A stretch of 64,000 bases of DNA from Candidatus Woesebacteria bacterium. GTDB taxonomy: Bacteria > Patescibacteriota > Microgenomatia > UBA1400 > UBA1396. Position 1 is the stretch's first letter, and the number at the start of each line of letters is the position of its first letter. Below are positions 28 through 59,842 of the stretch, in pieces. Below the pieces are notes generated by a model, which was given only the letters and a program-made list of their open reading frames with translations, did not search any database and had not been told where the DNA came from. Made by a program: the position numbers and the translations under genes. The DNA lies in NCBI GenBank assembly GCA_963749595.1, contig CAVVNJ010000001.1:1376-65375 (forward strand), in the 5' to 3' direction.

Positions 28-1233
28 CTATCCGCGACTGATCAGGTCCATGATTTGTCCCACGTTATCCACCTTTTCGATGCCATGGACCATTTCGACT
101 ATTCTCTCGATTGTCGCCGTCGACAGCGGTTTTATGGCATCGGCGGCGCATTCCCTGAATTTTCGCGCACAATCATCAAAAGACATGGGATTTTCCGCAC
201 TGCCCCGGAAATATTCGACCGCCTCGAAATATTCCGTCCCGTCATTCATGGTGATCCGGATTTTGCCCGGCGAAACACCATGAACGGTCATGCTGTCATC
301 GAGCACACCGTTAACTTTCTTCGCCACCTTCAGGATGTCCTTGTTTGTTATGCTCTGGTCGGTAAAGTCTTCGACGGTTACTTTGCCCTTAACGAGCGCG
401 GTGGAAACCGTCCAGGGTACACTGAATTGGGCGTCGACGATGTTACGCGGCGCTTGCTTGATTTCGGGGGGTTGCGTCAGGCTGTAGCCGGACTGCCCGC
501 CGATCGCCGTGATCTCCTTTACGTCGTCGGGGTTGATCTGGTTCTTCGCTCGCAGGCTAAGAACGGCATCGATGAATGGATGAGTAAAACCGCAGCAAGG
601 ATATGGTTTGAATCCGATGTTGATACCTTCATACACCTTCCCCAGGTCTTTCGTCAGTATTTTCGGATCGTAATCTCCCCTCATATAGGTGTTGTAAACC
701 CCACCCCTCCCCTCAACCCCCTCCAGCGGGTTCCGGTCCCCGGTAATTCCTTTTTCCGCCATCAGGGCGGCGGTCACTCCCGCACGGGCGGCAAATCCGG
801 GTCCCATCCTCTTCGCGATGCCCCCGCCCGTCCCCGCCCCGCCGCATTGATGGAACGCCAGGCCCAGCGCGTTAATCCATTTATCTTCGTCGAGCTTCAT
901 TACTTTAGCCGCCATGGCTCCGGAAGCCAGGCAGCCAAAAAGCGTTGTCGGATGAAATCCCGCCCCGAGCGCCGTGCCGCCCGGCCGGCTGGCCGCACCC
1001 AACCTGGAATCGAAGTCCCCGCCCAGGGCGACCGCGGCGACAAAATCCTTGCCGTTTACGTTTCCCATCCGTTCGGCGGCCGCAAAGCAGGTGGATATGG
1101 CGACGCAGCCGACGTGTACCAGCGATTTGGGGTGACCGTCATCGTAGTCCAGGGCATGCATCATCGAACCGTTGGCCTGGGCGGCATGAGGGTTTTTGCC
1201 GCTTCTCCGCATCAGAAGCCAGAACGGAACCAA
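28..1233 (-). CDS. MmgE/PrpD family protein (2-methylcitrate dehydratase-like), 5'-truncated
   Basis: 401-aa ORF with family motifs MHALDYDDGH, GFHPTT and KPYPCCGFTHP. It lacks the roughly 70-80 N-terminal residues usual for the family. Homology begins at about nt 1200, directly at a junction with a pilM fragment. Sampled lines give a higher local GC (about 58%) than the rest of the window. Confidence 0.8.
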   Translation of the reverse strand: MVPFWLLMRRSGKNPHAAQANGSMMHALDYDDGHPKSLVHVGCVAISTCFAAAERMGNVNGKDFVAAVALGGDFDSRLGAASRPGGTALGAGFHPTTLFGCLASGAMAAKVMKLDEDKWINALGLAFHQCGGAGTGGGIAKRMGPGFAARAGVTAALMAEKGITGDRNPLEGVEGRGGVYNTYMRGDYDPKILTKDLGKVYEGINIGFKPYPCCGFTHPFIDAVLSLRAKNQINPDDVKEITAIGGQSGYSLTQPPEIKQAPRNIVDAQFSVPWTVSTALVKGKVTVEDFTDQSITNKDILKVAKKVNGVLDDSMTVHGVSPGKIRITMNDGTEYFEAVEYFRGSAENPMSFDDCARKFRECAADAIKPLSTATIERIVEMVHGIEKVDNVGQIMDLISRG

Positions 1234-1342
1234 TCGGGTTAGAAACTTCTACCGCGCGCTCAATCGCCAGTCCCTGACCCGATTTCTTGCCGACTAAAAT
1301 TTTTATGGCATAAGAACCGATATCCAAACCGACATTAGACAT
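1139..1342 (-). pseudogene. pilM: PilM/FtsA-type actin-like ATPase, N-terminal fragment of about 47 codons
   Basis: The ORF starts MSNVGLDIGSYAIKILVGKKSGQGLAIERAVEVSNPIGSVLASDAEK, a typical PilM N-terminus. The PilM-like reading stops at about nt 1200, where PrpD-like sequence begins in another frame. Confidence 0.5.
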
Positions 1343-1384
1343 TACTTAATCGTAGAACAAAGCACGGTCTAGGGCAACCGATGA

Positions 1385-1753
1385 CTAGGAACGAAAACGG
1401 CTCGGATCAACTGATGATTTAGTTGATTTGCCAACTAAAACCTCAAATCTAGTTTCTTCGCCGAGCTTCTTCTGATCGATTTGCACCACGTACTGACCGA
1501 TTGTCAGATGGCCATCCGGTTTAATCATATAGCTAGTCCATTCAAAATCAGCGAGATCAGAGTAAGAATCGAAAGCAAATTGCTCAAACAAGGACTGGCA
1601 GATTATCTGGGCGCTTAACTTGCGGCCGGATCTTTCAATCCTGACCAGAGCCTCTTTAATCGCCGCGGTAAAATCAGCTAATTCAGTATGACGCTCCGGC
1701 TCCGGAAAGGCCGGAAATTGCACGGTGGTATCCTCAGTATGACGTCTGGTCAT
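1385..1753 (-). CDS. hypothetical soluble protein inside the pilus locus
   Basis: Intact 122-aa ORF with no TM segment or signal peptide. Its layout resembles the neighbouring 1797..2234 product (charged N-terminus, a helix, then a beta-rich end: ...RFEVLVGKS vs ...SFEIEVGSI). No family recognised. Confidence 0.6.
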   Translation of the reverse strand: MTRRHTEDTTVQFPAFPEPERHTELADFTAAIKEALVRIERSGRKLSAQIICQSLFEQFAFDSYSDLADFEWTSYMIKPDGHLTIGQYVVQIDQKKLGEETRFEVLVGKSTKSSVDPSRFRS

Positions 1754-1796
1754 ATTACCTCCCCCGCAGAGCGCGAGTTTTGGCGTATTATATCAC

Positions 1797-2234
1797 TCAC
1801 CGATAGCGCAACTCGCTGTCCGGCACTTGGTAGGAAGGATCGATTGACCCTACCTCAATCTCAAAGCTTAGCTTGCCCAAAGAAACGACCCGACACTCAA
1901 AACTGATTGCGTTAGAACCAATAAAAATCGCTCCTTGAAAGTTGAGTTTTTTGCTCGTTGAGTGGATTCGCAGGTAATGTTCATCAGCGAATCGAGTACC
2001 GGCAAAGTATTTAGCGAGTCCCTTAACGATTGTTCCTGGCGTTAAATCCAGCCCCGATTCTCCGAGCATGGCGACGGCGACTTTCAATTCTTCTCGCATC
2101 GCCGCAATTTCACCAACCAAAAACTCACCTTTTTGCTGCCGATCCTGCCGCCTTGATTCCTTGGTCTGTTGCTCCTGAGAGATGAAGCCAACTAAATCTT
2201 CCTTAGTCATATTCCTCCGTTCGATTTTTACCAC
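1797..2234 (-). CDS. hypothetical soluble protein, distant paralog of 1385..1753
   Basis: Intact 145-aa ORF (alternative start MTKEDL at 2210) with a Q/R/E-rich N-terminal helix. No family recognised. Confidence 0.6.
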   Translation of the reverse strand: MVKIERRNMTKEDLVGFISQEQQTKESRRQDRQQKGEFLVGEIAAMREELKVAVAMLGESGLDLTPGTIVKGLAKYFAGTRFADEHYLRIHSTSKKLNFQGAIFIGSNAISFECRVVSLGKLSFEIEVGSIDPSYQVPDSELRYR

Positions 2235-2239
2235 ATCTA

Positions 2240-2997
2240 TTACTTTAGTATCGTCGTTCCGGACACCAGCGCGTAATCCATGATCGCCGGCGCGTATTCC
2301 GAAGTTCGCTGGACTTCAATCGACTTGGTTTCCCGGCCGAGCGTGTTCTTAGCCACCGTATTGATCGTAAATTGCTGCACCGGGAGCGTCCAACCAACGC
2401 CGTTTACCAGTACCGGGGTATCGTTATAGATCGGCGTAATCCTGATCGCCACGTCCCCGTCCTGCATCGTCAAAACGACTTGCCGGGCCAACTCGGAACC
2501 TGGGGTAGTGACCAACGCGAAACCGTCGCCGCGCTCGCAGATGGCGTAAGAATAGTAGCGCGACACCGGCGTGCCCGTACTGCTATTGACCACCGCTAGA
2601 ATCAGCGAGGCCGGACTCAGGGCGCAGTCGGTCGTATCACTCCATTCGACCTGGCAACTTGCTGACCGTTAACGGCGCCGGTGACATTGACTTCCGCGAC
2701 CGAACCTTCGAGCAAATCAACCGATAACTGGGTTTGTTGGGCAATCGTATAGTCGACATTGGCATTTTCTACGCCGGTGTATTCACCGGTGGTGGTTGTT
2801 TCCAGATAAGTTGAGCCGCGGGAAAGGATATCCTCCAGCGCCGCTTCGGCCGCGGCGAAAGTTTGGACGGCTTCCTGGGTTTGGCGGGAGGACTGAACGT
2901 CTTGGGTACTGCGGGCCGCGATTGAAATTCCAATGGTTGACAGAACCACCATGATCAACAATACCGCGATACCGACTTGGCCTGACTGCGCGGACAT
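2240..2997 (-). pseudogene. PilX-like minor pilin, one frameshift near 2655
   Basis: An internal ATG at 2997 gives MSAQSGQVGIAVLLIMVVLSTIGISIAARS..., a PilX-type N-terminus. The reading frame ends at 2617. The frame of ORF 2240..2593 is open upstream (..QVEWSDTTDCALSPASLILAVVNSST..) and continues the protein. Confidence 0.55.
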
Positions 2998-3013
2998 GCC
3001 GCCAGTGTAGCAT

Positions 3014-3555
3014 TTATTGATAGGACCGCACATAGACATTCCCGGTAAAGTCTTGCGACGTAATAGGATTCGGATGACAGATCGGCCTGGTTGCCGCTTT
3101 CGATCCGAAATTGAACTCTGAATATAGGCGCCGCGCTCTTCCGGATCCTGGCGGCAGGAAAAGTTCAAACCGTGAAACTTTGACGGCCGAGCTGGACAGA
3201 TAGGCCGCCGGCGGGTCGGTGATGACGGTACCGGAGTTAGAAGCCACCCGATCGTCGATGCAGAGTAGACCTCCACCGACCCGCCGGACTGATCGATGAC
3301 GCGAATCGCACTCATTTCATCTCTGGCAGACTTGCTGAAACTGATTCTCCCCGACATAGCGAGCATTGCGTTAGGGAAAGTTGATTCCGTGAGGACGAAA
3401 TCGCCTTCCCGCCGCACTTGGGAAATTACGTTGGCCCGAGAGCTACGAATCTGCGAAGTAATCAAAACATTTACCGAGACCAAACTGACAATCGCGGTTA
3501 CTGCTACCACCGCAATCAGCTCGATTAATGAAAAACCACGCCTGGTCATTCCCAA
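3014..3555 (-). pseudogene. minor pilin with prepilin-type N-terminal methylation motif, frameshift near 3245
   Basis: N-terminus M(G)MTRRGFSLIELIAVVAV. After about 104 codons the plausible sequence moves into the frame of ORF 3014..3247 (ASNSGTVITDPPAAYLSS...RSYQ*). The remainder of the 312-aa track ORF is out-of-frame read-through into the next gene. Confidence 0.6.
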
Positions 3556-3643
3556 TCTCCCAGTAGACTCTCCAAAGTCGTCGTAATGGTTCCGGTCCGG
3601 CCGGGCCGACTGACTTGAGTGGTCGTTTTAACTTGGGTCAGAC

Positions 3644-4029
3644 CTAATAATTCGAATCTAACTTGACGGGATAGTTGGTGTCGGGAATAACTTCGTTCTC
3701 GGCGACAAGCCCCCGGCAGCTAACAAAATTAGGTCCGCTGATGAGGAAGCAATGGTTGGCAAACAATATGTTAGATCGGCACCAACGGACGCCAGGTTGC
3801 CATAAAATTGACCCCAGCCCTCCCGATCGCGAACACTTCGCAACCATTCAACCACTTCCTGCGCATACTGGGTCGATTTGGTCTGCTCCAGCGATACCCG
3901 AGCGTTACGCAAAGACTGGATCACCGTTGAAAGCAATGCGACCAAAACCAGTGAAATTACGGCAGTGGCAAAGGTCACTTCCACTAGGGTCTGGCCTGCG
4001 CAGCCAAGATCGCGAAAACGATTGGTCAT
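3644..4029 (-). pseudogene. pseudopilin (G|QTLVEV class), probable frameshift near 3750
   Basis: N-terminus ...LGCAGQTLVEVTFATAVISLVLVALL. The C-terminal part reads better in the overlapping frame (..LISGPNFVSCRGLVAENEVIPDTNYPVKLDSNY*), which supplies a second Cys for a D-region disulfide. Confidence 0.55.
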
Positions 4030-4056
4030 AGGTATCAGGTTATCATGAAGCGCCCG

Positions 4057-4557
4057 CTACAGTGAAATTATGCCGTGATCTTCAACCACCCCACTCACCG
4101 TAATCACGAACTCATAGGGCGTGGTGGTTTCATCAAGACGGGAAAGGCGCACGGTCTCCGGTGCCCCGATGATCGGACCGGATTGAACCGGAAAGATTAC
4201 GGAAAAATCAGTTAAAAAATATTCTTGTTCGCGCAGATGATAGACCATCCGCTCGTCGGCCTTGTCCGCACCGTCACAGCGGGCAACCAGATAAAAATCC
4301 TGGGTATTCTGGGCGGCATAGACCCGATAGCCATCAAGATTCGTGCAGTTGGCCGCCGGCTTGTCACCGGAACGGCTGCGATTTTGAGCCACCCGAAGTA
4401 CCGTAATAATGTCCTTGGCTGACTCGGCCCGGGCCTGGCGGGTAGCCAGACTGCCGTACGCCGCCAGGACGCCGCCCAACATGACTAGCCCCAAAGCCGT
4501 GGTGACCAGTAACTCGATGAACGTGAAACCGGAGTTAGCGCGGTTGGCTGACCACAT
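4057..4557 (-). CDS. pseudopilin, prepilin-type N-terminal domain (GspH/FimT-like size)
   Basis: Intact 166-aa ORF, MWSANRANSGFTFIELLVTTALGLVMLGG... Confidence 0.8.
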   Translation of the reverse strand: MWSANRANSGFTFIELLVTTALGLVMLGGVLAAYGSLATRQARAESAKDIITVLRVAQNRSRSGDKPAANCTNLDGYRVYAAQNTQDFYLVARCDGADKADERMVYHLREQEYFLTDFSVIFPVQSGPIIGAPETVRLSRLDETTTPYEFVITVSGVVEDHGIISL

Positions 4558-5003
4558 AGAGATTGGTTCCGGAGTAGCCGTAGCTGCTGCCGTTGATCAT
4601 GGTCGTCATCCGGATTTTCCAACCGCGTAATCAATTCATAGGTCAGCGTGGTGAGGCGGGTGTAGTTGTAGGTGTAGGTTTCGGTGGATAAACCGGTCAA
4701 ATCGCCGGAGAAATTAGCTTTGGGATCGACTGGTAGCGTCGCCACGTAAGTCGGCAGGATGCCGGGAATCCACTCCGCCGCGCAACCCGGCCAAGTGATA
4801 TCGCCGCCGCAATCGGTCGACTCGGGATATTCGCCGACCTGCTGCTTGTAGGCCTCCAACGCGACCTGCAGATTGGCCAGGTCTTTCTTCCGCCGCGCGT
4901 CACGGGTGAATTTTCCCGCATTAACGAACGACACGGTCAGGACGCTGCCAACACCGCGATGATCGCCTGACCACCAGCACCTCAATAAAGGTGAAAGCCG
5001 GAT
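4545..5003 (-). pseudogene. type IV pilin (PulG/PilE-like), at least 4 frameshifts and no start codon
   Basis: Re-translation across three frames gives KRSGF/TFIEVLVV/AIIAVLAA/VLTVSFVNAGKFTRDARRKKDLANLQVALEAYKQQ...YELITRLENP, then TTMINGSSYGYSGTNLYVVSQPR* ending at 4545. Single-nt indels sit near 4993, 4968, 4943 and 4605. Confidence 0.55.
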
Positions 5004-5006
5004 CGC

Positions 5007-5440
5007 TTAGTCGGTGACGCAATAAATGCCATCGCTGGTTACTCCGCAATTAGGACAAGGTTGGCCCTCGCCGGTTTCCACCACGGCACTTAATTCATAG
5101 GTGCATCCGGGCAGGTTATGCAATTTGTAACGGTAAAAATAGGCGGTTTGCGCCGTATTGTAGAGCGGGTCGGCAAAATTCTTGGTGTTGTACTCGGCGG
5201 TCAGATTTTCCAAAAAGTGCCGTCGCCGCTGTACTCATAGCCGCCGACTTCATTGGAAGAAACGGGGTAAGCGCCAACCTCCGAACGATAATTTTCAAGT
5301 ATTCCTCTCATCTCCTGCAGATCCGCCTTGCGCTTGGTATCGCGCGCGGTAACGATTCAGTTGCCGGAAACTGACCGCCACGACCGTCACCAGCACCGCA
5401 ATGATCGTGGTGTCACCAACAACTCGATTAGCGAAAAACC
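5007..5440 (-). pseudogene. type IV pilin, at least 3 frameshifts and no start codon
   Basis: Re-translation gives KSGFSLIELLV / TTIIAVLVTVVAVSFRQLN / IVTARDTKRKADLQEMRGILENYRSEVGAYPVSSNEVGGYEYSGDGTF / ENLTAEYNTKNF...CPNCGVTSDGIYCVTD*. Indels sit near 5412, 5354 and 5213 (a ttttt run). Confidence 0.55.
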
Positions 5441-5444
5441 GGAT

Positions 5445-5863
5445 TTACTGCAAGTTTTGGGCACAATAATAATCTCCCGCCGTCATGCTGCTGCAGTCGT
5501 TAGCGCTGGCATTACCGCGACCAGTTTGTTCCATGTGGCGCACATGCAATAGGTGGTCGGGGAACAAGTGAGAACGTAGGTGTAAGGTGCCGTCATTTTT
5601 CGGATCGACGGCAGACCGTTGGGCAGAACCACCAACCAAGAGTGCTGCCGACGCAACTGCCGAATATTCGGTGTTGATCGCGTAATACTGCTCCAGGGCT
5701 TTGCGGACATTTTCCACGTCTGCGCGCCGCCGGGAATCACGGCCGTTCTTCTGGGCGGTGGTAAAGCTCACCGTGGCCAGGGCCATCAGAATACCGATAA
5801 TCGAGATCGTTACTAATAGTTCCAGTAAAGTAAAACCCAACGCTTCCGTTGACGGTTCAGCAT
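5445..5863 (-). pseudogene. type IV pilin, leader frameshift plus a compensated internal pair
   Basis: The ATG at 5863 gives MLNRQRKR, then a 1-nt shift near 5838 leads into GFTLLELLVTISIIGILMALATVSFTTAQKNGRDSRRRADVENVRKALEQYY. Residues between about 5588 and 5535 read properly only in another frame (APYTYVLTCSPTTYCMCA). The original frame then resumes (MEQTGRGNASANDCSSMTAGDYYCAQNLQ*). Confidence 0.6.
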
Positions 5864-5867
5864 ATTT

Positions 5868-6773
5868 TCAGTATACACGATAAAAGCTATGTGAACTGGT
5901 GGAACACCCAATTCCACGATCATCGTATCCGACCGTCGCGGCGGCGACTCAACGCCGCGCTATCAGTCGCCCGCAATTGGACGGTGTAGGCGCAGGTGGT
6001 CGTCGGACAGGTATACTCTTTACTAAATTGGTCCGGACCGGTCGCTGCCCACAATTTCGTCTTTGGTGCCATCACCAAAATCGATGTTCACTTTTTCCAG
6101 CGGCGCCTCCGGTCATCATAAACAAAGTTGAACAAGACCACCGCCGAAGTTTCGGCAATACGCAAGCGATGCTGTTCGTAGTCGGCAAAGGGATCGGTCT
6201 GCAGCGAGAGTAGTAGGGGTCGTTGCAGGCAAGCTTGATAACAACGGCCCGGACAGTCGGTGACGCCGCGGCTATTGAGTTCGCCGTCACCCACTTCCAG
6301 CTCAGCGTCGCAACAGAACAAACCATGCGCGGCGCAGACACTGGCGGGCTTGGCCGCACGCAATTGGGTGCTGCCCCAGATCTGACAGGTCCTCTTTCCC
6401 TCGGCGTAAACCAATTTCTGGTGACCCCATAACTCGATCGTCAACTCTCCGGTTATATCTTGAGAAGTAAAATTATAGAAGAAGCCGGCCGAACCGGTAG
6501 TCTTTTTTACCAGCGGCGGCAACGATTTTCGTTGCCACTCGACCGGACTCGCGCGCCAGACAATGTACCTCCAGCACGTATTCTCGATTATCAAAAAGCG
6601 CAGCTGGAAACCGTCAAGGGTTGCCCCGCTAACAAATTGAGTGTACATTGCGGCGTTACTGCTCGCCCAGCGCTGCGGGAATAGTCAACAGGCGAGCATC
6701 CGACACCAGTTGGGTCCGGCCAGTAGAGCATTATTTCGCGACCGCCAAAAAAAACGGCGAAAAATAATAGCAT
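5868..6773 (-). pseudogene. pilus-operon protein with C-terminal PKD-like domain, multiply frameshifted
   Basis: ORF pieces 6591..6773 (MLLFFAVFFGG...), 6088..6648 and shorter pieces further down make up the gene. Re-translation of 5868..6090 gives VNIDFGDGTKDEIVGSDRSGP / QFSKEYTCPTTTCAYTVQLRATDSAALS / VAAATVGY..., a PKD-type signature. At least 3 frame changes are present. Confidence 0.4.
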
Positions 6774-7634
6774 GGCGTGACGGCTAGTCGGATTAGGGTA
6801 ATTACGAGAAAGTTCATATTGCCAGCAGGTGCAAGTACCATGCTAGCAAAGAATCGCCCCACAACAAAGCCAGAATCGTTCCGGCAACCAAGAAACGGTC
6901 CGAAGGGAAGGGGTTGGCCGAACTTCGCTCGGCCGTTAACAATTAGCGAACACCCCGATGACGGCCCCCAGGACAAAGGCCAAAAAGGTGGACACTAAAA
7001 CTTGGGGCCAACCAACTAACAACCCCAGCGGAAACACCAGTTTGACGTCACCAAAACCCAAGCCGCGTCGTCGGGTTGCCAACCATAGCACCAGGAACAA
7101 GCCCATGACTAACTGTGCGCCGAAGAGCGCCATTGCGAAAGTCGGTTTGCCGGTAAATACCCACGGCGGTTAACAACATTCGGTAACCAATGCCGCGCAG
7201 GCCAAAGTCAACATCGCCCAGTCGGGAATAATCATGGCCCGCAGAGTCGATTATGGTAATCAGCAACAGCAGCAGACCAACCGCCAGCCAGAAAACCGGC
7301 TGAATGACGTCCAGGGGACGTTGCGTCAACTGAAAAAAGGCGGTGCCAATCAACCACCACCAGACAAACAGGGCGCCTGTCAGCAGCTCCACCACCGGAT
7401 GCATGACGTCGATTTCCTTGTGGCAGGTCCGGCAGCGGCCGCGCAGCACCAGAAAAGATAACAGACGGCACCATTTCATACCAGGCTAACGGCCGGCGGC
7501 ACTGGTCGCAGCGCGAGCGGCCGTGCACGTAATCCTCGCCCGGCCAGCGTCCGCAGCACATAGACATTGATAAAGCTGCCAACACTCGCGCCCAATAGGA
7601 ATATTACTGGTGAAAACAATAACGATAGGTTCAT
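6731..7634 (-). pseudogene. pilD: prepilin peptidase / N-methyltransferase (A24 family), at least 5 frameshifts
   Basis: The ATG at 7634 gives MNLSLLFSPVIFLLGASVGSFINVYVLRT. Later pieces lie in different frames: ..RCDQCRRPLAWYEMVP, LLSFLVLRGRCRTCHKEIDVMHPVVELLTGALF, TLRAMIIPDWAMLTLA, GLGFGDVKLVFPLGLLVGW and PLPFGPFL. The 3' end is uncertain. Confidence 0.65.
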
Positions 7635-7644
7635 TACCCGGTCT

Positions 7645-8256
7645 TTACGGGATACAGGCTAAGCAGGTGCTCACGTCTGACCCGTCCATACATCCTACTG
7701 CCGGGCAGGCCGTTGCTGAGACATCATCGTTAACTCCACCGCTCGTGCAATCCTCCTGAGCCTTGGATTGGAATTCAAAGGAGGAGGGGTAGAAGCAGAT
7801 ATACATCGTGGTGTTAGCTCCGGTCGGGCTTGTAGATCAGGTAATCGACATCCGCGTCAGTCTTTCAGTCGGCTGACAAAAGCCTCCTTGATTTCAGCGC
7901 GATCGGCCAAAATGTCAACCCAGGACCAGGTTGGGGCAGTTCCCAAACACTCCGGTTTCATCAAAGATGAATTCGGAGATGTAGTCCGTATCACCGGTAG
8001 TATAGGCCGGGCAGGCGCCAGCGTTAGCCACGTTCCAAGGATAGGTTTCCTGCGTGGCAAAGAAACGGTCCACCGCGCTGATCAACTGCGCGGCGTCCGA
8101 ACGGGTACGGGTATCACGACCTTTGTTGATCTGTTCGATCGGGTTGATCGAAGACAAGACCGCTACGGCCAAAACGCCGATCACCGCGATCACCACCAAT
8201 AGTTCAATCATGGTGAAACCAGCGGAACGGAGGGACTTCAACATACGTGCAGGCAT
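7645..8256 (-). pseudogene. major type IV pilin candidate, 3 frameshifts
   Basis: MPARMLKSLRSAGFTMIELLVVIAVIGVLAVAVLSSINPIEQINKGRDTRTRSDAAQL... Frames change near 7920, 7858 and 7817. The last piece is ANTTMYICFYPSSFEFQSKAQEDCTSGGVNDDVSATACPAVGCMDGSDVSTCLACIP*. It is the first pilin after pilC. Confidence 0.65.
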
Positions 8257-8308
8257 ATTAATTTCCTTATGCTATTAAGCGTAGGACACGCGCCACCGAG
8301 TGTCAATA

Positions 8309-9514
8309 CTAAAACTGCGAAGTGAGGTTATAAATTGGCAAGACAATCGCCACGATCAGAAAGCCGACGCCCAGGCCCAGCACGATCATGATCAAAGGTT
8401 CCAACGCCGTGGTTAAACCCTTGACCGCGTACTCGGCCTCGCGTTCATAATAGGTGGCCAGCTTGGTCAAGACATCATCCAGCTGACCGGTTTCTTCGCC
8501 CACGGAAATCATTTGCGGCAGCAGGACCGGAAAAACGCCGGACTTTTCAATCGACCGGCTAAGCGGCTGGCCTTTTTCCACGTCGCGCCGGGCGGATTCA
8601 ATTGCCTGGCGGAAGACCAGATTATCCAAGCCGTTGATCACGATGTCCAGCGCTTCCAGCAGGGAAATGCCGGCGGAAATCAGCAGCGAGAGGGTGCGGG
8701 AGAACTCGGTCACCAAGATCTTCTGACGTAATTTGCCGTAAACCGGCAGCCGCAATAAAAATTTATCAAATTGGTATTGCCCATCTGCTTGGTCCGGTGC
8801 CAGGAACGGAAGATAAAAACTGCCAGAAAGACGAGCCCGGCCACGACATACCACTGATTGGTAAAGAAGTCTGACAAGTCGATCAGGAATTGGGTTGGTC
8901 CCGGCAGCTCGGCTCCGAAATCGGCATACATCTCGGTCATCTTCGGAATGACGAAGATCATCATCACGACCGCCACGATGGCCATCGCGATCATCACGAT
9001 CGCCGGATAGATCAGCGGCGCCCTTGGTTTTGGCCCGGAATTCCTTTCTGTTTTTCCAACGTGTCGGCCAGTCGGTTCAGAATTGTATCCAGGGCACCGG
9101 CCACCTCGCCCGCCTGAACCAGCGAGACATAGATTTTGTTAAAAATCTTGCCCTGTTTTCCCAAAGCCAGACCTAGATTTGATCCGCCTTCAACTTCCCG
9201 TTGCAGAGCGCGGATAATCTTAGCCATGGCGGGCGGGGATTGATTTTCCAGGACCGTGAAAGCCTGAATTAGGGGCAGGCCGGCATTAATCATCGTGGCC
9301 AGCTGGCGGGTAAAGTTCACTATGTCGTCCTGACTGACTTTGGCAAAATAATTTGAATTTCGGCCAGACCGGTCTCGCCGCTTTCCCGCAAAGAAATCAC
9401 GAAAATACTGCGCTCACGCAGGATGTTTAGCCGCCACGTCTTGAGTTTTCGCCTCGACTTTACCTTTGATTTTCTGGCTTTATTATCCCGACCGGCATAG
9501 ACGAAAGTCGGCAT
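8309..9514 (-). pseudogene. pilC: type IV pilus platform protein PilC (GspF family), about 6 single-nt indels
   Basis: Four track ORFs (9320..9514, 9012..9320, 8710..8997, 8309..8854) together give a full GspF/PilC sequence: MPTFVYAGRDNK.., NFTRQLATMINAGLPL, LIYPAIVMIAMAIV, FSRTLSLLISAGISLLEAL, LEPLIMIVLG. Frame changes sit near 9355, 9045, 9015 and 8790. A hidden compensated pair lies near 9480/9430. Confidence 0.8.
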
Positions 9515-9516
9515 AC

Positions 9517-10582
9517 TTAACGTCCCAGCAAGCGATCCAATTCGTCCGGACGGATGGAGTTATTGCGGGCCTCTTCCATCGAAATCACCCCGTTGTTGAC
9601 CAACTGGACCAGGTTAGCTTCCAGCAGTCACCATGCCGACATCGCTGGAGGTTTGCATGACGTTATCCAACTGATAGGTTTTGCCCTCGCGAATCAGATT
9701 CGAGGCCGCGGAGGTGTTGATCAGTACCTCGATCGCCGGTACGCGCTTTTTTCCGTCGATGGTCGGTATTAGGCGTTGGGAGATAACGGCCCGCAGCGTT
9801 GAAGCCAGTTGTTGACGAACCTGAAGCTGTTGAAACTCCGGAAACACATCAATGATTCGATCTACGGTATCCGGACCGGAATTGGTGTGGAGAGTGGCAA
9901 AAACCAAGTGCCCGGTCTCCGCCACGGTCAGGGCCGCTGAAATTGTTTCCAGATCGCGCATCTCGCCCACCAAAACCACGTTGGGATCCTCGCGCAGAGA
10001 GGCGCGAAGCGCATTTGGCCAGGAAAGGGTGTCTTGGCCAACCTCGCGTTGCGAGATCAGCGATTTGGCCGGTTGATAAATGAACTCGATTGGATCCTCG
10101 ATGGTCACGATATGTTCGCCACGAGTTTGATTAATTTCTTCGATGATCGCCGCCAGAGTCGAGGACTTGCCGGTGCCGGTCGGGCCGGTCACTAAAATGA
10201 AACCGGAATGCTCTTGGGCCATGCTATGGCAAATCGCCGGCAAACCCAGTTCGTCAATGGTCTGGATTTTGATCGGAATCAAACGCATGGAGATAGCCGT
10301 CGTATCCTTCTGGGTGTAGACGTTAACGCGCAAACGGGCCTTATCAGCATACTGATAGGAAAAATCAATCTCCTTGGTTTCTTCAAAGCGCGGTAAATTC
10401 TCTGGGCTCAGCAGCTGGAGGGCAAAATCGTGGGTTCGTTCCGGGGTTAATATCTCTTCGCCGGAAACCGGGAAAAGTTGGCCATTCACCCTTACCGTAG
10501 GCAGCATGCCGGAGATTAGATGCAAGTCGGAACCGCGCTCAGCAATAAGCAGATCCATTAATTGGTTGAGGGTGGCAGCCAT
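9517..10582 (-). CDS. pilT: twitching-motility ATPase PilT, 1-nt insertion near 9625
   Basis: 322-aa ORF with GPTGTGKSST (Walker A), VLVGEMRD and ATLHTN. After ..DVGMVT the true C-terminus (LEANLVQLVNNGVISMEEARNNSIRPDELDRLLGR*) is in the adjacent frame. Its stop is at 9517-9519, just before the pilC ATG. Confidence 0.85.
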
Positions 10583-10604: not shown

Positions 10605-12386
10605 CTAAATCTGCGCAACCCGGAGAACCTCTTCGATGGTGGTAATTCCTTCCAGGGCTTTCATATAACCGTCCTGCTTCATCAGCATCATGCCGTCAAC
10701 TTGCGCCATTTTTTCGATCTCGGCAGCACTGCGCTGCTCTAAAATCAGGCGACTGATCTTGTCGGTCACCGGCAACACTTCGAAAATAGCAATCCGGCCC
10801 AGATATTCCGGCTCAGTGGTCGGGCGATCGGCACGGCTACGGAAAAGCTTCACCTCCGGGAGCGTCAGGCCTTTTTGTTTCAGAAATGCGTCGAAATAGG
10901 GACCCAGTGAGGCTTTGATGTCTTCGAGTACTGCCGGAGGGGGACTGTATTCTTCGACAAAGTCGGGATTTAAGCGGCGGAGAACGCGCTGAGCCATCGT
11001 CAGGGTAATCGAAGAGGCAAGCAAGAACGGCTCGGCCTTCATATCCAACAGACGGGGCAGGGCACCGGCCGCGGAGTTCGTGTGAATAGTCGACAACACC
11101 AAGTGACCGGTCAATGAAGCCTGAATCGCCAAACCGGCCGTTTCTTCATCCCGAATCTCACCCACCATGATTATGTTTGGATCCTGCCGCAGAAAAGAGC
11201 GAAGACCTGAGGCAAAGGTCAGACCCGCCTGGGGGTTAACTTGGACCTGATTTATTCCTTCCATCTGATATTCGACCGGATCTTCCAGCGTCACGATATT
11301 TACCTCAGGCTTGTTCAGCAAATGCAAAATGGAGTACAAGGTGGTAGTTTTACCGGAACCGGTCGGACCGGTGATCAAAATAATGCCATGGGGCACCCGG
11401 ATCGCCGCTTCTAACTGACGCAAACCCAAACCGCGCAAACCCAAATCCCCCAGAGTGGGGACATTGCCTGATTTTTGTAAAATACGCATCACCACTTTTT
11501 CACCATGTGCAGTCGGCAAAGTAGAAACGCGTAAGTCGACTTCGTGGTCACCCTCGCGAAAAGTAAAGCGGCCGTCCTGTGGAATGCGTTTCTCGTCAAT
11601 CTTTAGATCCGATAAAATTTTAACGCGAGAAACCACCCCTTCATGGACATTTTTCGGCAAAACCAATTTCTCTTGCAAAATGCCATCAATTCGATAACGA
11701 ATCCGGGTTTTATCCTCCAGAGGCTCAATATGGATATCACTGGCCCGGGACTTTAACGAGAAACTTAGCATCGTCTCCACAATCTTGGCGATCGGCGCCT
11801 CTCGCATTACCTCACCGACACCAAAAGCGGTTTCAGACTCACCGGCGATTAAAATCTTCTTGCCAGCCGCGGGACCGGTTTCCCTGAGTGCCGCGGTCAC
11901 CTCGGTGGAAAGACTGGTGGCGTAGCGTTCGGCAATGGCCCGCTGAATTTCCTCAGCCGGGGCAATATAGGGTTTGACCCGCAAGCCGCTTTTTCGCTGG
12001 ATAAACTCGATCGCCTCTAAATCCAAGGGATTGGCCATCACCACCGACAGCTCGCTGTTTGCTTTATCCAAATTGAACGGCAGCAGGGAGTACATCTTGG
12101 CGGTACCGTCTGAAATTTGAGCCAGGGCTTCGGGTGAGGCCCCGACTTCTTCAATATCTAAGTAAGGAATGGCGTAAATAGCCGACTTCGCCCGAGCCAA
12201 GTCTTCGTCACTCACGTAATGTTTTTCATCCAATATTTGGTCGGGAGTCTTGCCGGTCCTAATTTGTTCCAGCGAAATGTCATCGCTCTGCAACGGCGTC
12301 AGTTTTCCCTGGTCGAGCAGGACGTCCACCAGTGAGGTGTAGCGGCGCGCCGGGGTGGCAGCTGGTTGGGCTGGGGCAGAGTCCAT
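10605..12386 (-). CDS. pilB: type IV pilus assembly ATPase PilB (GspE family)
   Basis: Intact ORF with GPTGSGKTTT (Walker A), IMVGEIRD and STIHTN, plus an N-terminal GspE-N-like domain. The track ORF extends to 12431, but MDSAPAQP at 12386 is the more likely start. Confidence 0.9.
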   Translation of the reverse strand: MDSAPAQPAATPARRYTSLVDVLLDQGKLTPLQSDDISLEQIRTGKTPDQILDEKHYVSDEDLARAKSAIYAIPYLDIEEVGASPEALAQISDGTAKMYSLLPFNLDKANSELSVVMANPLDLEAIEFIQRKSGLRVKPYIAPAEEIQRAIAERYATSLSTEVTAALRETGPAAGKKILIAGESETAFGVGEVMREAPIAKIVETMLSFSLKSRASDIHIEPLEDKTRIRYRIDGILQEKLVLPKNVHEGVVSRVKILSDLKIDEKRIPQDGRFTFREGDHEVDLRVSTLPTAHGEKVVMRILQKSGNVPTLGDLGLRGLGLRQLEAAIRVPHGIILITGPTGSGKTTTLYSILHLLNKPEVNIVTLEDPVEYQMEGINQVQVNPQAGLTFASGLRSFLRQDPNIIMVGEIRDEETAGLAIQASLTGHLVLSTIHTNSAAGALPRLLDMKAEPFLLASSITLTMAQRVLRRLNPDFVEEYSPPPAVLEDIKASLGPYFDAFLKQKGLTLPEVKLFRSRADRPTTEPEYLGRIAIFEVLPVTDKISRLILEQRSAAEIEKMAQVDGMMLMKQDGYMKALEGITTIEEVLRVAQI

Positions 12387-12423
12387 GCTTTCATGGTAAC
12401 ACCCGCGTGGTATTCTGTAACTA

Positions 12424-12899
12424 TGGACCAACCCGGCGCGCCCGCATCTTACTCTGGTGAATCAGTGCCTGAAATGCCAAAAGTTGACCCGGCAAAACAA
12501 AAGCAAGCTCAGTTGGATCAACAAAAATCCCAACACCAAGCAGCGGCTATCCAAAAAGCCACCACCCAAAGGCAACAAGTCTGGCAACAATTTCTCGCCC
12601 ATAAAAAACAAACCGAACAGCAACGGGTTCAAACCACAATTCAGCTTAAAAATGAAGCCAAGAAAATTGCAACTTACAGCCCTAGCTCAGCTGTGCTCTC
12701 CACGACTACCGGTGGCGACTTAAGCGAACAAACCGTGGTTCAATCGGCCATGGAATCAGCCCGGGAACAACGAATCCGCGAACAAAAAGCCAGACAAAAC
12801 GCCGCTAAACCAGGTGCCCCAGGGAAGGCGCCATCAACCACCAAAACCGATGATCAAGATTCGCTGCAACGGCAATCGGAACAAGCCATGGGCGAGTAG
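12424..12899 (+). CDS. hypothetical Q/K-rich low-complexity protein
   Basis: The ORF frame is open from 12366. The likely start is MDQPGAP at 12424. Composition is strongly biased towards Q, K and A. Divergent from pilB. Confidence 0.45.
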
Positions 12900-19993: not shown

Positions 19994-20812
19994 ATGGCTA
20001 AATCCCGCTCCCATTCCGAAACTCGCCGCCCTTTTCCAGAGGACGAAACCTCACCCTACGGTCTGTTTGCCATCACTTTTCTCAATCAAGCCGGCGAGGC
20101 GGAGCCAATTTTTAGCGACCAACTGGGTACTCTGGTGAACAAAGTAGTTCAGCGCGCCGGTGAAATCAGAACCGGAGCACAATCCGACGACCTGGTCCTC
20201 ACCAATCGCCGCGGGACTGAAATTTTCAGCTCCCAACTAATCGTTCGTTACCCGTTCCTGCGCCGAATGGTCAATTTAATGATGGTCAAGCACGCGGGTC
20301 AAATTCGTAAAGGCGACGGGGCCGATTACCGCGAACACCCGCTGGAGGTAGCGCACATCTTGGCGCACTTCAATTTTGGAGCCGAGGTCATCGCGGGTGG
20401 TCTGGGACACGATCTGCTTGAGGATACTGAAGCTACCAAGGAGGAAATTTTGGCCGCTAGCACGCCAGAAGTACTGCGAATCATCCGCGCGGTTTCCGAT
20501 GATCGTTCACAAACTGATTGGTGGCAACGCAAGCTCGCGCACATCGAATCAATTCGCCGGGGCGGGGGAAAACCCGTGGCCGTGATGGTAGCGGATCATA
20601 TTTCCAACCTCCGGGCTGCGCTCGATACTTCCTCCAAGGAAGGGGAACAGTTTTGGCTAAAATTCAACGCCGCTAAATCCGATAAGCTACGCTACGAACA
20701 AAAAGCTCTTAACCTGGCGATGAATACTGTGAAAACTCCCGAAATGGCGGCGATGGTAACGGAATTTGCAGGACTGGTTGGCCAACTGGCCAAGATTGTC
20801 GGCAATCGATGA
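19994..20812 (+). CDS. HD-domain protein, SpoT/Mesh1-like (p)ppGpp hydrolase domain
   Basis: 272 aa with HAGQIRKGDGADYREHPLEVAHIL...GLGHDLLEDTEATKEEI. An N-terminal extension of about 100 aa is unassigned. Confidence 0.7.
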   Translation: MAKSRSHSETRRPFPEDETSPYGLFAITFLNQAGEAEPIFSDQLGTLVNKVVQRAGEIRTGAQSDDLVLTNRRGTEIFSSQLIVRYPFLRRMVNLMMVKHAGQIRKGDGADYREHPLEVAHILAHFNFGAEVIAGGLGHDLLEDTEATKEEILAASTPEVLRIIRAVSDDRSQTDWWQRKLAHIESIRRGGGKPVAVMVADHISNLRAALDTSSKEGEQFWLKFNAAKSDKLRYEQKALNLAMNTVKTPEMAAMVTEFAGLVGQLAKIVGNR

Positions 20813-20860
20813 GCTCCCAACCCGACGGTCAATGCAGGTTCCTCATTGATGGCGCAAGTA

Positions 20861-20890
20861 TTGACAAATCGCCAATTCCGCTGCTATAGT
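20861..20890 (+). promoter_or_regulatory. sigma70-like promoter candidate upstream of the HerA-like gene
   Basis: TTGACA (20861-20866), an 18-nt spacer, then TGcTATAGT (-10 at 20885-20890, with an extended -10 TG). Confidence 0.35.
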
Positions 20891-21014
20891 TGTGTTCAGC
20901 AAGTAATTCCTCGTGTGTGGGGTTCCGTAGGTTCCTCGTAAATAGCGCACGGGGTTTTGTTTTTCTTAAGGGAACAAAGGATTTTCCTCGATAATCAACT
21001 TTTCCAAGGGATCC

Positions 21015-22415
21015 TTGTCCTGCCAAATAGGTGAAATATTTGGGGTTCAATCCAAGAAGATTTTTCTCGTTAAGTTGTTCGAAGACAGAAAAAGCATTAA
21101 AAAGTTTGACATTGTTAAATTTAGATATTCGATGCAGGACTCAAGTGATTTTGTAATCATCGGGATTGTTTTTGATACCTATCTGCTTAATCAGGAAAAA
21201 TGGGCTAAAGTTTTACAGCTGAAAGAACCAGAGAATTCAGATGAGAAACTAGACAAAAACGTCGTTTATAAAATAACGGACAGATCAAAATGCAGATCAC
21301 TGAGTGCTGAAATAAAAGTTGACAGGTTTGTAGGTGTTGTTATTGATGGTTCAACCATAGGGAAAATAAAATTTGAGTATTCAAAAAAGACAGACGACCT
21401 ACAGGAGGGTGACCTTCTAGAACTAGAAGTTGGAGAAAAACGATTATTCTATCAAGTGATTAGCGGAACCACTGAAAAAGAGAAACTTGAAGCTAGAAAT
21501 GAAACGGGTTTTATTGACGGTGAAGCCATTCAACTTGGAGAGTGGCAGAGCGATCAATTATCATTTCAAAAATTTGGGTGGGTACCATCTATAAATACAC
21601 CGATATTTAAGGCCGATACATCAGATCTGACTGTTAATAGCTTTGAGTACCCTCAGTATAAACTTGGTGTTATCCCGGGTACCACTTTGCCGTCGGTAGT
21701 CAATTTGAGTGAAGCAGTTAGCCATCATACAGCCATATTAGGCGTTACTGGTTGTGGAAAAACATTTTTAACTCAAGAGATAATTGAAAAGCTTTTACAG
21801 GATACAAGAGTAATATGTATCGATTTTACCGGTGAATGGAAAAAGAAGCTGGATTCTTCTAAATACCAAACAATTAGTAAAGAAGATATAGATACTTATC
21901 TAGCTGGCTCAGATCAAAAAGTAGGTATTTTTGAGCTACCCGCTTTAAGTAACACAACCGATGTATTAAAAGAAACTCAGGGTTTTCTAGAAAAAGTGTT
22001 CAATTACGCAAAAACAAAATACGATGAAAATACACCAGTTAGGGTCGCCCTTATACTGGAAGAGGCGCACACAATTACTCCGGAAACAAGCTTCCTTGGA
22101 GATATGGGTGACTACTCAAACAATAAGGCCTTAGTTAATAAAATGACTCAGGTTGCGCTTCAGGGTAGAAAGTATGGTGTTGGGTTGCTCGTAATAGCTC
22201 AACGAACTGCCAATGTTTCCAAAACAGTCTTAACACAATGTAATACTGTTATTTGTTTTCAGGCATTTGATGAGACAAGCTTTACATTCTTGGGGAATTA
22301 TGTTGGTAAGGATATGGTTCAGGCTTTACCAAACTTGAAGCAGTACCACGCCGTAGTTGCAGGTAAGGCAGTTAAGTCCAACATGCCCATGATTGTTGAC
22401 CTTAAAAGAGAATAA
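21015..22415 (+). CDS. HerA-like (DUF87/FtsK-HerA superfamily) ATPase
   Basis: 466 aa with a TTG start. An N-terminal barrel-like region is followed by ILGVTGCGKTF (Walker A) and VALILEEAH (Walker B). The gene is markedly AT-rich (about 37% GC by sampled lines) against about 50% in the flanks. Confidence 0.8.
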   Translation: MSCQIGEIFGVQSKKIFLVKLFEDRKSIKKFDIVKFRYSMQDSSDFVIIGIVFDTYLLNQEKWAKVLQLKEPENSDEKLDKNVVYKITDRSKCRSLSAEIKVDRFVGVVIDGSTIGKIKFEYSKKTDDLQEGDLLELEVGEKRLFYQVISGTTEKEKLEARNETGFIDGEAIQLGEWQSDQLSFQKFGWVPSINTPIFKADTSDLTVNSFEYPQYKLGVIPGTTLPSVVNLSEAVSHHTAILGVTGCGKTFLTQEIIEKLLQDTRVICIDFTGEWKKKLDSSKYQTISKEDIDTYLAGSDQKVGIFELPALSNTTDVLKETQGFLEKVFNYAKTKYDENTPVRVALILEEAHTITPETSFLGDMGDYSNNKALVNKMTQVALQGRKYGVGLLVIAQRTANVSKTVLTQCNTVICFQAFDETSFTFLGNYVGKDMVQALPNLKQYHAVVAGKAVKSNMPMIVDLKRE

Positions 22416-22517
22416 GATGTTAGTTTCGCCAACATTGTGTGCAAAGTTCACAGCTCGAGCAAAACTAAACATTGTTGGCATTTGTCATTGTTCTGAAATA
22501 CGAAAATTCTAGCACGA

Positions 22518-23228
22518 ATGTATACTCTAATTATGCCCACCAAACTCTCCCGCTCCAAACTCGAACTCTTATTCGACTGCCCCCGCTGTTTCTGGCTCTA
22601 CGCCGGCAAAGCCATCGCCCGTCCTTTCGGGGCCCCCTACACCATCAACAACGCCGTCGACTTCATGCTTAAGAAGGAATTCGATGAACACCGCCAATCC
22701 GGCACCGCCCACTACCTAATCGAACGCGAGGGCATCGACGCCATACCCTTCCTCCATAAAGATATCGACCGGTGGCGCCACAACTTCACCGGCATCCAGC
22801 ACATTCACCAGGAAACCGATTTCCTCGTTTTCGGCGCCGTTGATGACATCTGGGTTGATTCCAATGGCCAGCTCATCGTCGTCGATTACAAAGCCAGCGG
22901 AGCCAAAGAAGGGGAGTTGTATGACTCCTACAAACGTCAGATGGAGATCTACCAGTGGTTGTTGCGCCAAAATGGTTTTGAAGTTCTAGACCGGGGCTAT
23001 TTCGTTTACTGCCGGGTCAATTACCATGAAGGCTTTCACCAGGGTGAGATGAAGTTTGACATCAAGCTGCAGCCCTATGACGGCGACGCTTCTTGGGTGG
23101 AAAATAAAATTCGCGAAGCGCGGCAAGTTCTTGACCACCCCATTCCGACTGCCGCCGAACAGTGCCAGTACTGTCGCTACCGGCAACGGGCCGCTGAATT
23201 CGGTGACCAGCAACAACACCTCTATTGA
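22518..23228 (+). CDS. PD-(D/E)XK nuclease, Cas4/RecB-like with Cys pairs
   Basis: 236 aa with CPRCFW near the N-terminus, GAVDDIWV, VVDYK, QMEIYQWLL and a C-terminal CQYCRY. This is the motif order of Cas4-like nucleases with a 4-Cys cluster. Confidence 0.7.
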   Translation: MYTLIMPTKLSRSKLELLFDCPRCFWLYAGKAIARPFGAPYTINNAVDFMLKKEFDEHRQSGTAHYLIEREGIDAIPFLHKDIDRWRHNFTGIQHIHQETDFLVFGAVDDIWVDSNGQLIVVDYKASGAKEGELYDSYKRQMEIYQWLLRQNGFEVLDRGYFVYCRVNYHEGFHQGEMKFDIKLQPYDGDASWVENKIREARQVLDHPIPTAAEQCQYCRYRQRAAEFGDQQQHLY

Positions 23229-25879: not shown

Positions 25880-26217
25880 TAATCTGCAGTACAAAAATTC
25901 CCGCTTCTCCGTCGGTGACATCATTCGTGTCCATCAGATCATCAAGGAAGGCGAGAAAGTCGCGGATCCAGATTTTGGAGGGCGTCTTGATCGCGGTTAG
26001 CAATCGCGAGAGCGGTCAGTCTTTTACCGTCCGCAAAATCGCGGCCAACAGCGTCGGAGTGGAACGTATTCTTCCGGTCAACTCGCCGTTCATTGAAAAG
26101 ATCGAGCTCAAGCAGGCCGGCCAGGTCAAACGCGCCAAGTTGTTCTACCTGCGCAACCGTGTCGGCAAAGCAGCCTCCGCTATCAAGAAAAAAGTCTTGA
26201 CCTCTAAGCAAGTTTAA
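25872..26217 (+). CDS. rplS: 50S ribosomal protein L19, 1-nt insertion near 25960
   Basis: The ATG at 25872 gives [29 protein letters not shown]. The frame then shifts into [58 protein letters not shown] (track ORF 25915..26217). The total length is 346 nt, not a multiple of 3. Confidence 0.85.
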
Positions 26218-26274
26218 ATCGTTCCTTTCCGTTTTCGGTTAGTTTTCTGTCAGGTTTGTATGGCATGGTATTCG

Positions 26275-26646
26275 CATGTCAGACTTCACTTTACCTTCCA
26301 CTCGCGAGCGCGGCCTGGCCGCTGAAGAAGTGGCCGCCCAGTATCTGCTCCGCACCGGGTATCACATTTTAAAACGCAATCTAGCCACCCGGTTTGGCGA
26401 AATTGATATTCTTGCCAAGAAAGGACGGTGAATTTATGGCCGTCGAAGTCCGTTCCCGCCGAAAGCCACGCCGGTGCCGCCGGAGTTGTCGATCAGTCTG
26501 GTCAAGTACCGCCATTTAGTTCGGACCCTACTCAGCCTGCCGTTCCTCCATAATAAGCCTACCCGAATCGACCTGGTGACGGTGGTGAAAGGTGAAGTGA
26601 AACGGCACTACCGGGCGATTGATCCCACCCGCGGCGTTTATGTTTG
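26275..26646 (+). CDS. yraN: YraN-family (UPF0102) endonuclease-like protein, compensated frameshift pair
   Basis: MSDFTLPSTRERGLAAEEVAAQYLLRTGYHILKRNLATRFGEIDILAKK, then an in-frame TGA at 26428. The stretch DGEFMAVEVRSRRK reads only in another frame (from 26424). The original frame resumes by about 26480 (PPELSISLVKYRHL...RIDLVTVV). Confidence 0.7.
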
Positions 26647-27441: not shown

Positions 27442-27444
27442 GTT

Positions 27445-59795: not shown

Positions 59796-59842
59796 TACAC
59801 TTCCTCGACTTTCAAGCCCAGGATCGCTACAATAGGTTCACG

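Follow-up and report, generated by a model that had tools for sequence, protein, structure and literature searches.

When most genes of one apparatus carry broken reading frames, is the apparatus decaying in the organism, or is the sequence at fault? The question is raised by a locus at 1.2–12.4 kb, on the minus strand of the 64,000-nucleotide stretch of DNA analysed here (the window), in which the ORFs of a type IV pilus cluster are shattered between ~2.6 and 9.7 kb, the shifts being genuinely present in the deposited sequence. Judged by its genes, the locus looks complete and is unremarkable for a type IV pilus cluster of the Patescibacteria (Microgenomates/Woesebacteria-like). It possesses the components by which such a system is recognized, namely the PilB and PilT ATPases, the PilC platform, the PilD peptidase, and pilins with N-methylation motifs, and these occur in the order pilB-pilT-pilC-pilin-pilD-PKD-like-minor pilins-PilX-like-pilM (Table 1). 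The same locus was found in two relatives, L162 (85% PilC identity) and L163 (78% PilC identity), where each gene is one uninterrupted ORF. The analysis described below indicates with high confidence that the frames were broken by single-base errors in the assembly consensus, occurring in blocks, and not by decay of the pilus; in the organism itself, the genes are most probably intact.

Table 1. Features of the pilus locus, its distal flank, and the second disrupted stretch (frameshift sites are window positions)
Feature	Coordinates	Strand	Frameshifts and remarks
MmgE/PrpD-family (prpD-like) gene, 5'-truncated	28-1233		PrpD N-domain match begins at profile position 71
pilM fragment	1193..1342	-	only residues 1-50 matched; adjoins prpD-like gene
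Two orphan ORFs, 145 and 122 aa	1385..2234	-	GC 0.46-0.475; between PilX-like gene and pilM; outside error block
PilX-like g265, PilX_N-domain protein, 265 aa	2240..3039	-	1: 2654 (lower edge of block A); PilX_N 25.8 bits
g160 and g177, pseudopilin-like	3014..4029	-	g160: 3701, 3669; g177: 3371, 3322, 3257, 3172, 3117, 3059
pilin165, pilin-like (orthologue 165 aa)	4057..4557	-	0; complete ORF although within block A
Three tandem minor pilins (orthologues 138, 152, 164 aa)	4535..5864	-	2 (probably 3), 3, and 4
pilin138	in 4535..5864	-	5633, 5535, plus a probable one at ~5838
pilin152	in 4535..5864	-	5412, 5354, 5217
pilin164	in 4535..5864	-	4996, 4967, 4941, 4604
PKD-like g308, conserved pilus-locus protein, 308 aa	5891..6817	-	8: 6774, 6719, 6679, 6590, 6550, 6107, 6031, 5960
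pilD, prepilin peptidase	6814..7634	-	7: 7541, 7465, 7245, 7186, 7140, 6950, 6895
Major pilin (orthologues 204-207 aa)	7645..8256	-	3: 7947, 7865, 7816; N_methyl motif
pilC, platform protein	8309..9514	-	6: 9477, 9428, 9357, 9047, 9016, 8783
pilT, retraction ATPase	9520..10582	-	1 inserted base (FS+1) at ~9628 (upper edge of block A); profile positions 1-353/354 aligned
pilB, assembly ATPase	10605..12431	-	0; 588 residues aligned to orthologues at 84% identity; outside error block
Block B	25561-28424		14 single-nucleotide frameshifts, 5.1 per kb; compared with L161 orthologues
Block B sites			pyrG 25561; rplS 25956; UPF0102 26420, 26467; yidC 26823, 26764; nadD-like 27913
Block B sites, 222-aa gene			28424, 28398, 28366, 28194, 28103, 28080, 28036

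Frameshift counts and density

Frameshifts were counted by aligning profiles of the intact orthologues from the two relatives to the window DNA, with frameshifts allowed. Block A, at 2654–9628, contains 43 (probably 44) single-nucleotide frameshifts, comprising 25 insertions and 18 deletions, at a density of 6.3 per kb. This is far beyond chance, since the identical pipeline applied to relatives versus one another called no frameshifts in 51 kb. Only the last 36 codons of pilT are pushed into another frame, and the rest of that gene and all of pilB are free of shifts, with no gaps in the DNA alignment of pilB to L162; at the block A rate, zero hits across pilT and pilB would have a probability of 3e-8, indicating a sharp block edge. 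The initial annotation had reported about 30 disruptions here, and the orthologue alignment bears out their presence, if not their total, which was undercounted. Its figures were exact for pilC (six), the major pilin (three), pilT (one), and the PilX-like gene (one), and too low for pilD (at least five, versus seven), the PKD-like gene (at least three, versus eight), and the two pseudopilins (one each, versus two and six). Its density ratio of roughly 10 also agrees with the 10.8-fold difference obtained for 1200–9700 relative to all other assessable sequence.

Several other approaches were tried and set aside. A 3-periodic Markov/Viterbi gene parser with frameshift states, run over the whole window, found uncompensated shifts and served as a guide only; it missed compensated pairs, split genes at dense shifts, and made false boundary calls at 16855, 47022, 50948, and 22601. 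Scans of public genomes and metagenomes with PilT yielded relatives of 62% identity or less, which supplied the first profiles and were too distant for site-level work. Finally, indel placement at the DNA level against L162 was noisy at 70–78% identity, and its relative-versus-relative control gave 16 gaps that were not multiples of three. The counts rest on protein-level alignment because its control was clean and the DNA-level control was not.

A second block in essential genes

If frames were being lost because the pilus is dispensable, essential genes would not be expected to share the damage. Block B, however, contains seven insertions and seven deletions in and around such genes, and its rate of 5.1 per kb is indistinguishable from the 6.3 per kb of block A (p = 0.56). 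The mix of insertions and deletions is also the same in the two blocks. The remaining 31 kb of assessable sequence has four frameshifts (0.13 per kb) and is ~50 times cleaner than the blocks. The rest of the window had originally served as a baseline for the pilus genes, and while the resulting ratio holds, the assumed uniformity does not, since block B matches the pilus block in density. The dnaG gene, which was checked via Pfam, is likewise split. A P-type ATPase was also tried as a route to synteny for 48–64 kb and led to no close relative; the ATPase alone could be checked there, and it is clean. Block-wise shattering is therefore not specific to the pilus, and essential genes are affected alike.

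The obvious alternative is genuine pseudogenisation, whereby real frameshift mutations are eroding the pilus in this lineage, with pilB and pilT retained. The disruptions of block A do fall on a dispensable surface apparatus, and two further features would fit with decay: pilM is cut after codon 50, with pilN and pilO absent from the window, and the locus carries an insertion of two low-GC ORFs of foreign appearance. An equal indel density in rplS, yidC, pyrG, and a nadD-like gene, none of which can be a pseudogene, argues strongly against it, as does the fact that density tracks position rather than function. Because rplS and yidC are affected to the same degree, the notion that the 57 indels of the two blocks are themselves real can be virtually dismissed.

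State of the genes after frame repair

In a locus that is really decaying, nonsense and missense changes appear along with larger deletions, and lineage-specific evolution is accelerated. In blocks A and B, all 57 disruptions are shifts of +/-1 nt and nonsense substitutions are absent: there is not one nonsense codon in 2272 repaired codons, versus the 5–17 that would be expected from real decay at substitution:indel ratios of 3–10. The alignment of each repaired pilus gene spans the whole orthologue (starting within a few residues), with no in-frame stops and with an ATG or GTG start present. Two of the tandem pilins had been described as having no start codon, and repair reveals a GTG at 5464 and an ATG at ~5035. 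Identities of the repaired pilus genes to their orthologues are 70–85%, as compared with 84–85% for the intact pilB and pilT and 64–85% for other intact flanking genes.

The repaired proteins also cover their matched Pfam domains end to end, and domains and motifs are fully conserved. For example, repaired PilC is 400 aa in length, identical to that of its closest relatives, and possesses two T2SSF domains, while repaired PilD matches A24_N_bact at positions 1–81 of 84 and Peptidase_A24 at positions 3–104 of 104. The PKD_4 match of g308 is weak (E = 0.0015, below the Pfam cut-off). Moreover, in a relative-rate test with L163 as the outgroup, window-unique versus L162-unique residues numbered 143/105 for the broken genes and 169/133 for the clean ones, and the broken genes showed no lineage-specific excess of amino-acid change over their intact neighbours (odds ratio 1.07, p = 0.73). 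Taken together with the condition of the essential genes, these results leave pilus decay very improbable. The initial annotation had itself preferred artefact over decay, and that preference is supported by block B, by full-length repair with zero nonsense codons, and by the lack of a substitution excess; the decisive point is that an equally dense block affects essential genes elsewhere in the window.

What the indel sites track

Another means by which frames could be broken is the miscalling of homopolymer lengths, of the nanopore R9, 454, or Ion Torrent type, with errors clustered in the pilus locus since hypervariable surface genes recruit reads poorly. Homopolymer indels that fragment gene calls are known from long-read assemblies (PMC9262707), and a few of the sites do occur at runs (T5 at 5213–5217, an A5 run beside 9047, and A5 at 25561). 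Neither half of this proposal, both of which had been put forward for the locus, is supported when all sites are considered. Homopolymer enrichment is absent, in that, when the longest run within 5 nt is taken at each of the 61 calls, the mean is 2.82, versus a background of 2.78, and runs of four or more are present at 15% of sites, versus 18% of background positions. Furthermore, many of the inserted bases extend no run in the DNA alignment to L162. As for variability, there is no correlation between indel density and gene conservation (rho = 0.04): pilC and pilD match pilB in conservation yet are heavily hit, and along with rplS and yidC they are as affected as the variable pilins. This explanation, too, is regarded as highly unlikely.

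Indel density instead follows position on the contig, in sharp-edged blocks, and not gene function or conservation. The intactness of pilB and of the two orphan ORFs, which had also been pointed out early on, is real, but the suggestion of selective sparing is not; they are intact because they are outside the error block, and not because of what they encode. As a separate matter, block A falls on the genes of a surface structure, a type of locus in which real variation is often seen, and this counts against an artefact.

A correct sequence that is decoded unconventionally, through programmed frameshifting, editing, or an alternative code, would also present as broken frames, and the existence of the frameshifts is the one thing in favour of this idea. 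The 57 shifts, however, are in both directions and their contexts possess no common motif, orthologues in both relatives are single uninterrupted ORFs, and the remainder of the window is normal under table 11. Its likelihood is consequently negligible.

Origin of the blocks

The frames were almost certainly broken by a process of consensus error that adds or drops single bases and that was confined to discrete stretches of the contig. The blocks would be stretches assembled from few noisy long reads, with long-read gap filling, stretches that could not be polished with short reads, or local low depth as candidate routes, and the remainder of the contig would have high-accuracy support. Unpolished, gap-filled, or low-depth long-read sequence is most likely the cause. 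Consensus errors in polished nanopore, 454, or Ion Torrent sequence would typically be enriched at homopolymers, which these indels are not, and a consensus of low depth or resembling raw reads is indicated instead.

The distal end of the locus

Beyond the error block, the distal end of the locus differs from that of the relatives in its structure. The junction between pilM and the prpD-like gene is sharp, near 1191–1195, and pilM is out of frame with the prpD-like gene. No match to pilN or pilO was found within the window, while a PilM-PilN-PilO module is present downstream in both relatives. The junction at ~1193 could reflect either a misjoin or a real rearrangement, and the composition of the prpD-like gene, tried as a test for a chimeric join, does not discriminate. 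The two orphan ORFs are absent from L162 and L163 and match no family, and a search of 1.84 billion representatives gave no meaningful homologue of the first. It is possible, albeit doubtful, that the indels are artefactual while these distal differences (i.e. the cut pilM, the missing pilN and pilO, and the two inserted low-GC ORFs) are real, in which case the lineage would have a Patescibacteria pilus locus that is conserved except for the loss of its PilMNO module. The cut in pilM and the missing pilN and pilO could be such a genuine structural loss, and this counts against a pure artefact.

Comparison with known systems and significance

ORFs interrupted by indels are a recognized feature of long-read and hybrid (meta)genome assemblies, where they are quantified with the IDEEL test and are the target of polishing tools (PMC9262707, PMC12007338, PMC11614293). 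Like such errors, the single-base indels of the window fragment gene calls, essential genes included, and comparison with relatives restores full-length proteins. Unlike them, they are without homopolymer enrichment and are concentrated in sharp blocks of ~3–7 kb, at ~5–6 per kb, in an otherwise clean contig. These differences favour gap filling, missing polish, or low depth on a local scale over a systematic miscall spanning the genome. The window also resembles the pseudogene-rich loci of host-restricted bacteria undergoing reductive evolution in having many disruptions across contiguous non-essential genes, but differs from them in that the hallmarks of decay are missing and essential genes are equally affected.

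As a pilus locus, the cluster is like others of the Patescibacteria/CPR, e.g., those for the pili of Saccharibacteria (PMC12206443), with PilB, PilT, PilC, PilD, a major pilin, minor pilins with N-methylation motifs, and a PilX_N protein, and it is fully syntenic with those of the two relatives. It is unlike them in the pilM that ends after 50 codons, the lack of pilN and pilO, and the two inserted orphan ORFs, all as read from the sequence. The type IV pilus apparatus is regarded as central to the way in which Patescibacteria live as episymbionts (PMC12206443), and this organism, if its sequence were taken at face value, would be scored as possessing a degenerate pilus, a wrong inference on that apparatus.

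The main value of these findings is as a warning, with the block-wise pattern serving as a diagnostic: error density should be judged locally and not per genome. The contig yields dozens of protein predictions that are fragmentary or internally garbled. The fragmentary ones are artefacts, as are some seemingly intact ORFs; for example, yidC, UPF0102, and pilin138 each present an intact-looking ORF that hides a compensating pair of frameshifts. Faulty predictions from this contig are already present in public protein collections, where they form singleton clusters.

Frame disruptions in the pilus locus

A type IV pilus cluster is encoded on the minus strand at ~1.2-12.4 kb of the window. Its pilB gene and most of pilT form long ORFs, which also predominate across the remainder of the window; from the tail of pilT to ~2.6 kb the coding sequence is broken into short ORFs whose frame alternates. 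Scanning public genomes and metagenomes with PilT places the organism in the Patescibacteria, closest to Woesebacteria and Microgenomates, with a best identity of only 62%. The window's proteins are present in public collections as singleton clusters, all from one contig. A search with the 400-aa PilC, repaired by restoring its frame at the called shifts, led to far closer relatives, with PilC proteins of exactly 400 aa and 85% and 78% identity. Their contigs, L162 and L163, carry the same locus with all genes intact, in the order pilB-pilT-pilC-pilin-pilD-308 aa-pilins of 138/152/164/165 aa-160-177-265-pilM-pilN-pilO. Overall, this is a type IV pilus locus of the standard Patescibacteria kind (compare PMC12206443).

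Frameshifts were called by profile-to-DNA dynamic programming permitting +/-1-nt shifts. Profiles of distant homologues already gave six shifts in pilC, three in the major pilin, seven in pilD and one in pilT. Alignment to the L162 and L163 orthologues yielded 43, from 9628 to 2654, with a probable 44th at ~5838 and none in pilB or the 165-aa pilin. The same pipeline, applied relative against relative (L162 with L163; L165 with L167, used for the ftsW region), made no frameshift calls in 51 kb. The frame disruptions reported in the initial annotation are therefore real in the sequence, and its counts were exact for pilC, the major pilin, pilT and the PilX-like gene; its total of about 30 was too low.

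Features of the window, with frameshift rates where assessed
Feature	Position	Strand	Frameshifts	Assessable nt	Per kb	Remark
MmgE/PrpD-family gene	28-1233	minus
pilM, residues 1-50	1342-1193	minus
Orphan ORF, 122 aa	1385-1753	minus				between pilM and PilX-like gene
Orphan ORF, 145 aa	1797-2234	minus				between pilM and PilX-like gene
Block A, pilus genes	2654-9628		43	6,804	6.3
pilT, most of gene	9614-10582	minus				long ORF
pilB	10605-12431	minus				long ORF
RelA/SpoT-like gene, small	19994-20812
HerA/FtsK-like ATPase gene	21015-22415					GC 0.37
PD-(D/E)XK/Cas4-like nuclease gene	22518-23228
Block B, housekeeping genes	25561-28424		14	2,755	5.1
Enolase-domain protein	44053-45978	plus				641 aa
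P-type cation ATPase	53272-55593	plus				773 aa
All other assessable sequence			4	31,457	0.13

A second block among housekeeping genes

The same test was applied beyond the pilus locus, using the relative L161 for the pyrG region and L165 and L167 for the ftsW region. In block B, shifts fell in pyrG (1, its first 1.45 kb being free of them), rplS (1), UPF0102 (2), yidC (2), a nadD-like gene (1) and a 222-aa gene (7); those outside both blocks lie at 14417, 14521, about 35152 and about 36816. The two blocks are indistinguishable in rate (p = 0.56) and each differs from the remainder (p < 1e-12). Their edges are sharp, the probability of zero shifts in pilT plus pilB at the block A rate being 3e-8. 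The frame disruptions are thus not pilus-specific.

Some shifts compensate one another, in pairs at 26764/26823 (yidC), 26420/26467 (UPF0102), 5535/5633 (the 138-aa pilin) and 14417/14521 (within a small 96-aa gene). Between the members of each pair lie 15-34 garbled residues without a stop codon, so ORF-based checks overlook them, and the yidC, UPF0102 and pilin ORFs appear intact.

Further along, dnaG is split at 59.8-60.2 kb, its Zn-ribbon and DNAG_N domains lying in separate frames. This plus-strand gene occupies at least three frames, with breaks near 59880 and 60150. The HAD-like gene upstream (59.4-59.8 kb, plus strand) also appears frameshifted; a third, small cluster of errors may lie at 59400-60200.

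Sequence error or decay of the pilus

If the pilus were genuinely decaying, its genes should show more than shifted frames. Once repaired, however, they contain no in-frame stops, align with their orthologues over the full length (beginning at most a few residues in) and are 70-85% identical to L162 (64-85% for intact flanking genes). Repaired PilC has two T2SSF domains, PilD has complete A24_N_bact and Peptidase_A24 domains, the pilins carry the N-methylation motif, and the 265-aa protein carries PilX_N. Every pilus gene has an ATG or GTG start, including the two pilins initially said to lack one.

Relative rates were compared using L163 as the outgroup: the frameshifted genes had 143 window-unique and 105 L162-unique residues, the clean genes 169 and 133 (odds ratio 1.07, p = 0.73), so the broken genes are not faster-evolving. 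A random substitution in the 2272 repaired codons has a 3.9% chance of making a stop. At the substitution:indel ratios of 3-10 assumed from bacterial mutation spectra, 43 real indels should be accompanied by 5-17 nonsense codons; there were none in those codons. Nor did indel density correlate with gene conservation (rho = 0.04). Finally, rplS and yidC are frameshifted too, and no living cell could carry these as pseudogenes. Taken together, these results make pilus decay very unlikely and indicate an error process that is confined to indels and affects stretches of the contig; the original preference for artefact is borne out by the hits in rplS and yidC, the clean repair and the lack of nonsense codons.

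Nature of the errors

Insertions and deletions are roughly balanced (25/18 in block A, 7/7 in block B). Homopolymer lengths are distributed alike at the 61 sites and in the background: the longest run within 5 nt averages 2.82 and 2.78, respectively, and 15% of the sites have a run of four or more, against 18% of background positions. The "short homopolymer" context noted in the initial annotation is therefore expected at any position. In the DNA alignment to L162, which is noisy, numerous inserted bases leave run length unchanged. The classical homopolymer miscall known for nanopore consensus (PMC9262707) was accordingly rejected, there being no homopolymer enrichment at these sites. The consensus in the blocks was instead probably made from few noisy reads, for example through gap filling, an unpolished stretch or locally low depth. 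The closest known phenomenon is the indel-fragmented gene calling of long-read or hybrid assemblies (PMC9262707, PMC12007338, PMC11614293), from which the window differs in its block-wise errors without homopolymer bias. The disruptions are a property of the sequence, not of the organism, and chiefly warn annotators and anyone inferring gene content from this genome.

The distal end and other features

Only the first 50 residues of pilM were matched in the window, abutting out of frame (junction ~1191-1195) the MmgE/PrpD-family gene, which itself lacks the N-terminal ~70 profile positions. The junction reflects a chimeric join or else a genuine rearrangement, and composition gives no indication of a misjoin or otherwise. 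Both relatives also carry pilN and pilO, for which the window has no match. The two orphan ORFs are insertions relative to L162 and L163, with a GC of 0.46-0.475 (neighbours about 0.53-0.56) and no Pfam or NCBIfam match; a comparison with 1.84 billion representative proteins gave no real homologue for the first. Truncated pilM, missing pilN/pilO and the orphans all lie outside the error block, and are the sole part of the locus where real change might be reflected.

Elsewhere, the low-GC HerA/FtsK-like gene, flanked by the RelA/SpoT-like and nuclease genes, may belong to an acquired defence-type island (19994-23228). The P-type ATPase lacks the N-terminal Cation_ATPase_N of its ~840-aa homologues and showed no frameshifts in 2.26 kb aligned; identity to its best homologues is only about 53%, which sets it apart from most adjacent genes. 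The enolase-domain protein is unusually long (relatives 615-668 aa), and its gene immediately follows pyruvate phosphate dikinase, an arrangement kept in relatives.
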